A DNA stretch of 64,000 bases from Eledone cirrhosa (GCA_964016885.1 OZ024740.1:106454001-106518000), one strand, 5' to 3'. Numbered from the stretch's first letter, positions 13,462 to 28,490 are shown. Notes: generated from the sequence alone by a model not told the origin. A program made the numbers and translations.

Positions 13462-13556
13462 TCTCCTTTGGTGAACATCCAAGAATTTAACTGCTGTGAT
13501 TTACGGATTAATAGGTGAAATATATTTTGTACTTAAAGAAATATATACAAAGGAGA
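13462..13556 (+). ncRNA. Hammerhead variant, G3-C8 core, long stems I and III
   Basis: tctcctttg GTGAACA tcc...ggt GAAA tatattt-loop-aaatata TA caaaggaga. Perfect 9-bp stem I. The homologue at 28144 has canonical CTGATGA. Confidence 0.72.
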
Positions 13557-14360
13557 TTAATCATTTTAAAAGGTATCTATAATCAAGTTCTAGTCAAACT
13601 TTAATTAGTTACTTACCTAGCTATATGTGCTTACATTCTTTACACATTATTCCCTGTGATTGCTTCATGCATCTATCTTATATATATATATATGTCAATC
13701 TATTTCTAATTGATATCTTTGAGGTTATTCCACGGTGGATATGGCCATGTCTCTCAGACATGACAACCCTTAATTTTAATTTTGGATATATGTATATATA
13801 CATATATATATACATATACATATAGATATATACATATACAAATACATATATACATATACATATAGATATATACATATACAAATACATATATATATACATA
13901 TACGTATATGTATATATATATACATATATATATATATATATGTATATATAAACATATACATATACATATACATATACATATATATATATACATATATATA
14001 TTTATATACATATATATATACATATATATACATATATATATATACATATATATATATATAGATGAAATCTTCAGGAAGCTGGGTGTCATATTAAGTTCTG
14101 GTATTTATACATTTAGGTAGTGGTAAGGGAGGGGTGGTGGAAGGGGGGGAGGTTTGGGGTGGGATGGTATTTAATTTTGGATAAATATATGACCCCTTGA
14201 TTGTTGAGATAATTCAGTTGAATAGGCTCGGCTGCTATTTCTGGCTGTTGATTTTCCTATTCACGCCACATGGATTACGTTGTTCAAGTGACTGGCATTT
14301 CGCTATAGATCAGCTCATGGTTCGTTTGTAAAAAGCCTCATAACGACATGTGTTCTAGAC

Positions 14361-15160
14361 TCTCTGCTCAATAGCTTTCGTTCGTGTTGGTACTATTCTC
14401 TAAGCTCTCATATATTCACCTAGCTTATGCTAAACGAATAATTTTTGAAGCTTGTTTCTCCCCTAAGGTATGCTATATTTTCTGTTGTTCTCCTGTCTCA
14501 CTCGCCTTACGCGTTTTAATTGTCCTAATAACTTATTTTGGTTATTATTGCACCGAAGTGAGATATATGATTTTTAATGCAATGAAATATCTATGATCTT
14601 CGGCAAATCACTGATGAGGGACTTATTTTATTACATGTTACCATGTGCTACCTGCAGTATTTTTCTCTATATTTTAATACATATATTTACCACTGCGATT
14701 CTGTGTTTTTTTCTCTCTCTCTTACTGTTCCCCCATTCTCTCTGTTTCTCCCCCTCTGTCTTGTCCGTTAACTCTTCCTCACACTTTCACTCACTCACTG
14801 TTTTTCTCCCTCTTCTCTTCATTTCATCCTGCACTCACGAACGCTATTTTTTCTCTCTCTGCTCAATAGCTTTCGTTCGTGTTGGTACTATTCTCTAAGC
14901 TCTCATATATTCACCTAGCTTATGCTAAACGAATAATTTTTGAAGCTTGTTTCTCCCCTAAGGTATGCTATATTTTCTGTTGTTCTCCTGTCTCACTCGC
15001 TTTACGCGTTTTAATTGTCCTAATAACTTATTTTGGTTATTATTGCACCGAAGTGAGATATATGATTTTTAATGCAATGAAATATCTATGATCTTCGGCA
15101 AATCACTGATGAGGGACTTATTTTATTACATGTTACCATGTGCTACCTGCAGTATTTTTC
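14361..15160. mobile_element. F2-like element with ~305-bp direct repeats (period 495 bp)
   Basis: 14361-14668 is repeated at 14856-15161. Identical translated ORFs at 14384 and 14879 confirm the duplication. Confidence 0.8.
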
Positions 15161-15665
15161 TATATATATATATATATATATATATATATATATATATATA
15201 TATATATATATATATACTTGTGTATAATGGTAGCTATGGTGCTTCCATAGGCGGTATGCCAAAATTAGCACTCAATATTCATACAGAGAATTGTGTGTAT
15301 CGTATAAAAAAGGAAAAATCAGTGATGCATCTGACTCAGCTTATTGCGTCTTACAATTGTTTCGTCGGCAGGTAGCTCGAGACATGGTCACTGTATGGAT
15401 CTGGCTGTTTCTACGGCTGCATGTTCCTTCGAACACGCGCAATTCGTTCGGAGCAAACTTTCTCACTGGGGTGTTATCGTCAAATAACACCTTCAAAAAT
15501 ATATATATATACACACATACACATACATATATATTTTTTTCGGGGTTATAAGGGGCTTAGCTCTGTTTCTTGACCGTTGTATCACGTGACTGTCTCCCCC
15601 TCCGCCTTTTGGGATACTTTCTCACATCATATAGACGCGTTCTCGAGGCTAGTAAAACGAGGTAT

Positions 15666-26990: not shown

Positions 26991-27400
26991 GCGTTTCAAC
27001 TGCAATATCAACATAGAATACTAAAGCATCGTCAGAGCATACTAATCAATAGAGATTTACATGTTGATAGCGAGGGACATGGTCCGAACACGGAAGAGCC
27101 GAACTCCCACTGTCATCGCCTCTATATCCCTCGCCTTCTCCATCTCTCTGTATGGCAAGCAAATGGGGTCCCATATGCTGCCCTCCCCACAGCCCCGGCG
27201 GACAGAATGGAGAAGGTGTTTCCCCGGAGTATGGCAAGGGAGATGCGCTGGAAGAGCCATTCCATCTCGCGAGGCTCACACCTGCGGCTGGCCAGCTCAG
27301 CGCCTATAGTGGTGAGTAGGGAAGTAGCCCTAGGGGTAAGGACACCAGAAGTCTCCACTGCCAAGGGCACGACCGAAAACCTGTTGGAGACCGATTGATT
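26991..27400 (-). mobile_element. CRE-clade (RLE-bearing) non-LTR 3' fragment
   Basis: VPLAVETSG...EWLFQRISLAILRGN matches the CRE-type C-terminus. GC-rich relative to the flanks. Truncates the R4 element. Confidence 0.7.
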
Positions 27401-27579
27401 CAGCAACTGGATGATGAAAGTCCTAAAGAAACGCAAGAATCATAATCAATACAGTAAAGAAACTGAAGATATTTGTTGTTATTTTTTGTTGTTGTTTTTT
27501 TTAAGAAATACAGATAAAGTTATATCTCAGGGGACACGCAAACAAAGCAGTAACTTCATTCTGCTAAATAAGCCAGAAT

Positions 27580-28490
27580 TGATTGACATATATATATATA
27601 TATTTAAAATAAACACATGAAACAATCACAGGGGAATTTGTAAAGTGCGTAATCACACAGCTTTAATGAAATATACAAGGAGGATTAATCATTTTTTAAA
27701 AGGTAATATTTGAAGCTCTAGTTAAACTTTAATTAGTTTTCTACCTAGCTGTGTGTGATTACACACTTTACAAATTATCCCCTGTGATTGTTTCATGTGT
27801 TTATTTTAAATATATATATATGTCAATCAATTTCTAGTTGATATAAAATGCTCGGATCTATTCATTGGAATCTTTGAGCTTATTCTACAGTGGATATGGC
27901 GCATGTCTCGGACACGACTCCTTTAATTTAATTTAATTTAATTTATTTCGGATATATAAACGGCTCCTTAATTGTAGAGCTAGATCGGTTGAAAGGACTT
28001 GGCTGCTATTTATAGCTGTCGACCACCCTATTCACGCCAATGGGAGGCCGCTAGCATGTTGTTAGTAGCTTTAGAATTGCAGCACGTGCGACGGTTCACT
28101 CGCAGATTTGCATTTGATGTGTAAACACAGACAGTTATTTCTTCCTCCTTGCTGATGATCTAAGATTTAGCTACTGTGACTTTACGGACTTTTAGTGAAA
28201 TATATTTCTTTAATGAAATATATACAGGGAGGATTAATCATTTTTTAAAAGGTAATATTTGAATCTAGTTAAACTTTAATTAGTTACCTACCTAGCTATG
28301 TGTGATTACACACTTTACAAATTATTCCCTGTGATTGTTTCATGTGTTTATTTTGAATATATATATATGTCAATCAATTTCTAGTTGATATGAAATGCTC
28401 GGATCTATTCATTGGAATCTTTGAGCTTATTCTACAGTGGATATGGCACATGTCTCGGACATGACTCTTTTAATTTAATTTAAATTAATT
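27580..28490 (+). mobile_element. pLTR-like tandem plus inverted unit (family F5, relative of 13060-13790)
   Basis: 27661-27945 is repeated at 28208-28490. 27580-27660 is an inverted arm. Contains a hammerhead. Confidence 0.8.
28144..28232 (+). ncRNA. Type I hammerhead with full-length stems
   Basis: cctccttg CTGATGA t-ctaaga...ttttag-t GAAA tatatttc tttaat gaaatata TA cagggagg. 8-bp stem I and 8-bp stem III. Confidence 0.85.

Follow-up and report, generated by a model that had tools for sequence, protein, structure and literature searches.

Can a natural hammerhead ribozyme family exchange the two bases of its catalytic tertiary pair while keeping them paired? This question is raised by a 64,000-nucleotide stretch of the Eledone cirrhosa genome (hereafter the window), in which two related motifs differ at core positions 3 and 8. 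The C3-G8 contact is the one that reconciled hammerhead crystal structures with biochemistry. It represents a tertiary pair of the active hammerhead core (PMC11167929, PMC3088659), and descriptors based on CUGANGA are standard in hammerhead searches (PMC8557442, PMC10085705).

Two hammerhead motifs in the window

The two motifs are composed of the following features:

13462..13556 (+): type I hammerhead, G3-C8 version (copy 1), with a 9-bp stem I, U10.1·U11.1, a weak helix II and a 9-bp stem III
13462-13470 / 13548-13556 (+): copy 1 stem I, 9 bp
13471-13477 (+): copy 1 core box GTGAACA, corresponding to G3 U4 G5 A6 A7 C8 A9
13478-13516 (+): copy 1 helix II region
13517-13519 (+): copy 1 GAA
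13520-13528 / 13538-13546 (+): copy 1 stem III, 9 bp
13545..13548 (+): copy 1 predicted cleavage site, after the AUA triplet, with A17 at 13547 and the cut expected between 13547 and 13548 (hammerhead numbering)
28143..28233 (+): type I hammerhead, C3-G8 version (copy 2)
28143-28151 / 28225-28233 (+): copy 2 stem I, 9 bp
28152-28158 (+): copy 2 core CTGATGA
28200-28208 / 28215-28223 (+): copy 2 stem III, 9 bp
28224 (+): copy 2 A17, with the cut predicted between 28224 and 28225 (hammerhead numbering)

Both copies share a single parse consisting of a 9-bp stem I, the seven-base box, U10.1·U11.1, a helix II region of 38-39 nt, GAAA, a 9-bp stem III and A17, in which stems I and III reach 9 bp each when A15.1-U16.1 is counted. 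This parse, together with an alignment over 561 nt (74%; 78% over 112 nt, E 4e-17), confirms the original observation of two homologous elements with the cores GTGAACA and CTGATGA. The sequence features of a type I hammerhead are present, namely an N3-UGAN-N8-A box with a Watson-Crick 3-8 combination, a GAAA box and an NUH triplet (AUA) in register, as are three helices around the core with helix I open. Stem III is longer than minimal, as had been proposed, but measures 9 bp instead of 7-8 bp. Covariation in stem I, likewise proposed, holds for three pairs among ten representatives, but the G in 'cagggagg' forms a wobble private to the window copy; the closest relatives of copy 2 read CAAGGAGG at this place.

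An Rfam scan of the window returned 146 matches at E<=1, none of them a hammerhead, the C3-G8 copy being missed likewise. Such a miss lowers the status of the motif as a catalogued member and not the case that it works like one, the curated models being without such a variant. MicroRNA matches in the same scan were rejected as (TA)n artefacts or long near-perfect inverted repeats, and a covariance model run on the window recovered the two known copies and nothing further. The family is also carried by X1, a contig run of unrecorded kind, which shows no alternative letter at 13471 or 13476 over the element holding copy 1 (element 1) and displays head-to-tail joints there; X1 is possibly the source itself or closely related to it and is thus not counted as independent.

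A non-coding tandem repeat as carrier

Each hammerhead lies within a larger repeat, the layout of which in the window is as follows:

12952..13239 (-): inverted, 5'-truncated unit copy adjoining the 5' end of element 1, without a hammerhead; matches phases 78-357 of the G3-C8 unit at 82%
13238..13800 (+): element 1, ~1.1 head-to-tail units, G3-C8 subfamily, ending at (TA)n
13786..14060 (unstranded): (TA)n microsatellite bordering element 1 on its 3' side, probably the target site
14169..14287 (+): small piece of this repeat, past the microsatellite; 90%
27577..27659 (-): inverted, 5'-truncated copy adjoining element 2; 89%
27661..28506 (+): element 2, ~1.55 head-to-tail units with a 547-bp period, C3-G8 subfamily
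28500..28562 (unstranded): (AT)n microsatellite bordering element 2 on its 3' side

Self-repeat offsets give a unit size of 523-571 bp in all three groups, with a GC content of 33-34% and a longest ATG frame of 28-89 aa in three of three units. The unit is non-coding, is arranged head to tail and contains one type I hammerhead each at a GC content below 45%, which are the defining features of a non-LTR retrozyme. It resembles in these respects the metazoan non-LTR retrozymes, as described in the accessible text of the corresponding reports (Cervera & de la Pena 2020, PMC7229834; Li et al. 2026), and a Penelope origin has been proposed for the class (Li et al. 2026, bioRxiv 10.64898/2026.07.22.740005). 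Helix II of the axolotl HHR_Amex2 likewise begins with a U·U mismatch (PMC7229834). However, the unit is larger than the typical ~300 bp given in the available part of that preprint, although inside its range of 51-972 (bioRxiv 10.64898/2026.07.22.740005). Compared with what these sources describe for metazoan retrozymes, most loci hold 1-1.5 units with inverted copies instead of long arrays, stem III has 9 bp instead of 1-2 bp, and three core pairs occur, among which the canonical C3-G8 is the rarest (212/2,320).

The hammerhead-bearing copies have a median span of 480 nt and a longest of 2,066 (n=192), and shared sequence seldom extends more than one unit on either side. Two or more consecutive complete hammerheads are found at L132 (U3-A8, 534 apart) and in G3-C8 pairs lying 539 and 542 bp from each other on one strand, such loci being a minority. 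Both orientations are present at 154 of 258 loci, and TA repeats stand at the end of 135/192 hammerhead-bearing copies. The 3' ends finish in GATAT followed by (AT)n and concentrate at phase 160-169 (131/453 fragments) and at 240-289 (177/453) past the predicted cut, while 5' ends are even round the unit, with 10 at phase 0-9 versus about 8 per bin. Partial tandems, an inverted 5'-truncated copy, microsatellite targets and internal 3' ends are features of Penelope-type insertion, and the inverted 5'-truncated copies and (TA)n targets have counterparts among the Penelope-like elements treated in the accessible part of PMC8557442. The two window elements match the insertion plan of the family, which fits Penelope-type insertion with internal initiation at two sites; Penelope reverse transcription is described as starting at two internal sites (PMC11167929, in the part available). 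The distribution of 5' and 3' ends fits a circular or uncut multimeric template. A linear cleaved template was rejected on account of the lack of a 5'-end excess at the cut site, where four copies have an abutting (TA)5.

The architecture is Penelope-like, but the carrier is a non-coding tandem unit with no evident link to a coding Penelope element. A frame combining reverse transcriptase (RT) and GIY-YIG was not found joined to the unit at the copies examined. None of the RT-like frames beside L054/L181, L184, L185 and L186 is accepted as the parent, since they are separate nested elements that are set off by (TA)n or other repeats, fall into three families and have their own 3' regions. Pfam named no family for three frames, and the Hydra-clade label applied to the frames rests on a CxCX5C linker (PMC8557442, in its accessible text). 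One of them (L181, 2409-4620) is a 686-aa RT-endonuclease-like frame with a long low-complexity linker, for which Pfam names no family. A very abundant, young Penelope-like family (L314-L343) with 834-aa frames and a CxCX5C linker was also observed, its members being 93-100% identical over 156 aa in 150 scored hits found with one endonuclease piece. The 3' region of this family contains a ~113-nt tandem duplication holding CTGATGA, with no GAAA box seen in register, and the family was rejected as the parent, the only match between this region and the unit being 25 nt long and not significant (E 0.02).

The available text of PMC4209133 describes Penelope pseudo-LTR hammerheads that are likewise of type I, with natural U3-A8 in Schistosoma and a large helix III in fungal and protist elements. 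Unlike these, the present family has no coding frame and places a long helix III in an animal, and it lacks both the unpaired base before helix II and the G10.1-C11.1 pair of the hammerheads reported there.

States and history of the 3-8 pair

The genome searched comprises 3.0 Gb in 1,796 contigs and contains about 2,500 copies of the repeat. A core-blind anchor pattern matched the genome at 2,567 places and its reversed control at 2, and chance is therefore excluded. All 16 combinations at positions 3 and 8 were counted as exact-pattern matches with the rest of the box intact, so that the counts are lower bounds. U3-A8 is the commonest state (1,617/2,320 copies), followed by G3-C8 (368/2,320, GTGANCA in family context) and C3-G8 (212/2,320, CTGANGA in family context), the latter being the rarest paired state present, while A3-U8 is found in 0/2,320. 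Mismatches account for 123/2,320, comprising 37 C·A, 29 U·G and 57 others, which were tallied by eye (28/28 and 29/29 rows). Watson-Crick combinations thus make up 2,197 of the 2,320 copies versus 1,285 expected under independence, a census that shows lineages and not independent events because the copies share descent.

In paired-core copies A17 is present in 162 of 163. The mismatch rate at 3-8 is 2.7% per site and changes at U4, G5, A6 and A9 amount to 2.4%; other columns show 2.8-5.8% change in a small unbiased sample, close to the core rates. Once inserted, copies accumulate changes in the core roughly as fast as elsewhere, with no visible protection, and selection would therefore act on the transposing RNA of master copies and not on host function. 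Some imperfect cores have spread as well: a linked variant occurs in 13/37 C3·A8 rows (7 loci), 8/29 U3·G8 rows (7 loci) have spread, and a U4C subfamily of the same repeat (CCGATGA) numbers 43 copies or places (e.g., L263 and L264). U4C creates a CpG, and some CTGATGA copies of its lineage may be decay products.

Among 239 parsed copies, 200 were assigned to 13 subfamilies. The copy tree was built from 53 paired-core copies, at most five per subfamily, with columns 3 and 8 removed, and it is unrooted because a looser pattern (2,737 matches) yielded no outgroup, no visibly new lineage being found in its first 100. All 13 of 13 G3-C8 rows fall on one side of a branch with support 99/95; with its 368 exact-pattern copies, the G3-C8 version is therefore multi-copy, and the condition that would have refuted the original reading, a singleton, does not apply. 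G3-C8 spans three subfamilies, across which N7, located between the paired bases, has changed (C or A). As a single group, U3-A8 is not rejected (p 0.31) and C3-G8 is rejected (p 0.03) on the same tree. Four changes of the 3-8 label are needed on the copy tree, for which the least possible is two, and two on the consensus tree; with only 2-4 pair switches, phylogenetic power is low. The central polytomy with long end branches suggests the oldest part of the tree, and both C-G and U-A occur there. The C3-G8 subfamily background next to the G3-C8 line also occurs in copies with G3·A8 (two) and U3-A8 (one), which does no more than hint at some path besides a direct swap. The two states of the supposed reciprocal C-G/G-C swap are thus real, but a direct route between them is not shown, and a commoner third state, U3-A8, exists.

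Pair counts were made on ten representatives, including the G·G copy from the mismatch search (L202), and 97.3% of cells were paired versus 41-50% in slid controls (the shuffle control ignores relatedness). Pairing reached 96.7% in stem I, 100% in stem III and 96.4% in the first three helix II pairs, and the 3-8 pair was C-G in three representatives, G-C in three, U-A in three and other in one. Two-sided changes were observed at five pairs, three in stem I, one in helix II and the 3-8 pair itself, whereas stem III has only G·U wobble changes and none that is two-sided. One of the stem I pairs has passed through C·A, which is fixed in two subfamilies. When the subfamily consensuses are compared, 34/41 columns vary in the helix II region and 0/12 in the remaining core; 8 of these 12 invariant columns were wholly or partly fixed by the search anchors, and the U4C lineage came to light only afterwards. 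Past an internal loop, helix I continues in a distal 4-bp extension that is 95% paired, and the sequence and pairing analysis identified no tertiary contact between helix I or loop I and loop II. The argument that the RNA structure was under selection gains from the five pairs with two-sided change, but the two window copies alone are weak evidence and the pair changes number only 2-4.

Stem III holds two direct copies of GAAATATAT, and the loss of one copy results in the minimal GAAA-UAUA-UA form, as in three other window hammerheads, so the 9-bp stem III may have arisen by duplication. A pattern with collapsed stem III gave 21 matches, 19 of them family-like by eye, which did not amplify. 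An ancestral short-stem subfamily was rejected; the collapsed copies are deletions and not the ancestor because they are scattered over all subfamilies.

Folding, cleavage and competing explanations

Nearest-neighbour folding assigns stems I and III a probability of 0.8-1.0 and the first helix II pairs at most 0.3. For 13/13 subfamily consensuses the minimum fold is more stable than the active one, by 1.1-8.8 kcal/mol, and for the window copies the gap is 4.3 and 1.9 kcal/mol, tertiary energy being outside the model. In the G3-C8 subfamily of the window, an A·A often follows the two C-G pairs of helix II (29/55 G3-C8 copies). Whole-unit folding gives a z of -0.6 for the window G3-C8 copy, and of -2.9 and -2.6 for others. 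A possible competing structure is located as follows:

13500..13519 (+): possible hairpin UUUAC (13500-13504) / GUGAA (13515-13519) from the RNAalifold consensus, which would cover U11.1-A14

This pairing is present in 10/10 rows of the RNAalifold analysis, where it covers the GAAA box, and in the minimum fold of 7/12 consensuses; conservation of UUUAC is no proof of a switch, because UUUAC also pairs with an internal GUGA in the active fold. The long stem III had been taken to imply monomer cleavage. Stem III is not apparently limiting, and efficient cleavage as a monomer is plausible in its regard according to the folding models, although the weak helix II, together with an active fold that is not the minimum, makes it uncertain overall. 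The accompanying contrast with dimer-dependent Penelope ribozymes does not hold in general, as Penelope-like elements of fungi and protists with a large helix III and monomer activity are described in the accessible text of PMC4209133.

The explanation that we consider probable is that the repeat is a non-coding retrozyme of ~540 bp, mobilised in trans by a Penelope-like reverse transcriptase, the type I hammerhead of which carries its 3-8 pair as U-A, C-G or G-C through selection for pairing. Judged by its sequence features, the repeat appears to work like a Penelope-mobilised retrozyme. The tandem repeat is likely copied by such an enzyme acting in trans, with the hammerhead predicted to cut the transcript to unit length and the RNA likely circularised. 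Reverse transcription would start at two internal sites ending in GATAT, about 165 and 260 nt past the cut, with priming on nicked (TA)n DNA and synthesis through the re-ligated or uncut ribozyme. The occurrence of U-A, C-G and G-C in separate amplified lineages likely reflects selection that keeps the pairing and not the bases. Counted against this explanation are the spread of the C3·A8, U3·G8 and U4C lineages, the position of the active fold above the minimum, the lack of a 5'-end excess at the cut, the failure to find a coding partner and the report, in the available part of PMC11167929, of Penelope insertion in vitro that does not need cleavage.

Several of these points would equally suit a G3-C8 ribozyme that is weak or dead and spreads via uncut multimeric RNA, its pair having become fixed when a few master copies happened to found the lineage. 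Hammerhead mutants had no effect on insertion by the Anolis Penelope protein in vitro (PMC11167929, in its accessible text), mismatch and U4C lineages also spread, the cut site attracts no excess of 5' ends, and the A·A in helix II would add to such a weakness. Such a course appears unlikely, however, given that it requires two transversions on complementary bases, kept through three later subfamilies while N7 changed, that stems I and III are still paired, and that mismatch lineages occupy about 7 loci versus hundreds for the paired ones. The unit might instead be the pseudo-LTR of an autonomous Penelope-like element with an unsampled coding part, and not a separate non-autonomous element, as the Penelope-like architecture, the (TA)n targeting and the RT-like frames near some copies would allow. 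Yet (TA)n or other repeats stand between the unit and those frames, which come from three families, each with a 3' region of its own, the 3' region of the abundant family has no more than the 25-nt match in common with the unit (E 0.02), and shared sequence rarely passes one unit, with 5' ends lacking a fixed junction, all of which makes this quite improbable. Least credible of all is a motif without selection at the ribozyme level, with stems that function as some other RNA or DNA hairpin and a 3-8 pattern that arose by coincidence. The failure of the Rfam hammerhead models on both copies, the absence of two-sided change in stem III and the unremarkable z of -0.6 for whole-unit folding of the G3-C8 copy in the window (as against -2.9 and -2.6 for others) lean that way, but a tertiary pair of the active core has no part in simple hairpins, and every box keeps the register of a hammerhead exactly, the AUA being cleavable (162/163 paired-core copies have A17).

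Beyond the retrozyme explanation, a bolder extension can be offered as a tentative idea. This family could be the first natural ribozyme family in which a catalytic tertiary pair is seen to have moved through three of the four possible Watson-Crick combinations, G3-C8 being active and briefly amplified mismatch intermediates still being present. It would be monomer-competent via a duplicated palindromic GAAAUAUAU dimer box that gave the 9-bp stem III, and would be held off by the conserved UUUAC/GUGAA hairpin until a mobilising protein or the folding order releases it.

Natural U3-A8, U10.1·U11.1 and a two-pair helix II have been reported (Perreault et al. 2011, PMC3088659), as has U4C in a viroid (PMC3088659), and U3-A8 occurs naturally in about 1,300 Schistosoma motifs of Penelope-like elements (Cervera & de la Pena 2014, PMC4209133). 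The variants of Perreault et al. are scattered single examples, with G3-C8 not named in section 8 of the accessible text, whereas U3-A8, G3-C8, C3-G8 and U4C are found here in one family. G3-C8 is not mentioned in the available text of PMC4209133, and natural G3-C8 is not named in that of PMC6155905, PMC6765202 and PMC10085705. As an engineered change, C3G/G8C partly rescues cleavage of a Penelope hammerhead (Frangieh et al. 2024, PMC11167929), and G3-C8 is also known as a laboratory mutant from PMC8495972 (a review) and PMC3884650. The same pair as in the engineered mutants (PMC11167929, PMC8495972, in the parts available) is here natural, in at least 368 copies and three subfamilies. The literature searched, from which some key papers and supplements were out of reach, holds no record of natural G3-C8, and its accessible texts on cephalopod hammerheads gave none either. 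Przybilski & Hammann 2007 reportedly found every Watson-Crick 3-8 pair to be cleavage-competent and Seehafer 2011 is said to have possibly searched for such 3-8 variants, so that prior natural G3-C8 candidates are possible.

What is new here is a natural family with three paired 3-8 states, of which the textbook one is the rarest; the swap itself is known from the bench. With nine of ten copies not C3-G8 and the motif missed by Rfam, CUGANGA-based searches undercount animal hammerheads. The family also provides a natural series in nearly one scaffold, comprising three paired cores, two mismatch lineages, U4C and a collapsed stem III, which puts two questions within direct experimental reach: by what steps a tertiary pair gets across a fitness valley, and whether cleavage by the ribozyme has a bearing on Penelope-type transposition, for which it was dispensable in one in vitro study (PMC11167929, in its accessible part).

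The window contains several further repeats. A second, minimal type I hammerhead family has three copies, at 39409-39476 (+), 41647-41579 (-) and 31883-31816 (-), with a CTGATGA core, a GAAA-UAUA-UA box and an 8-bp stem I, which is the usual dimer-type Penelope form, and a motif related to it with a GCGC loop lies near 44125 (-). A tRNA-like match at 38598-38668 (-, 41 bits) is probably the head of a SINE, and 205-208-bp repeats at 9745-10120 and 52346-52953 are related to it. Long near-perfect inverted repeats at 38315-38457, 31883-31975 and 15927-16103 are possibly MITE-like or inverted insertion junctions. Frame fragments at 2-1813 (-), 16439-17898 (-), 25510-26184 (+), 54290-54856 (+) and 58124-59077 (-), named from their motifs, are presumably of LINE-type endonuclease and RT.
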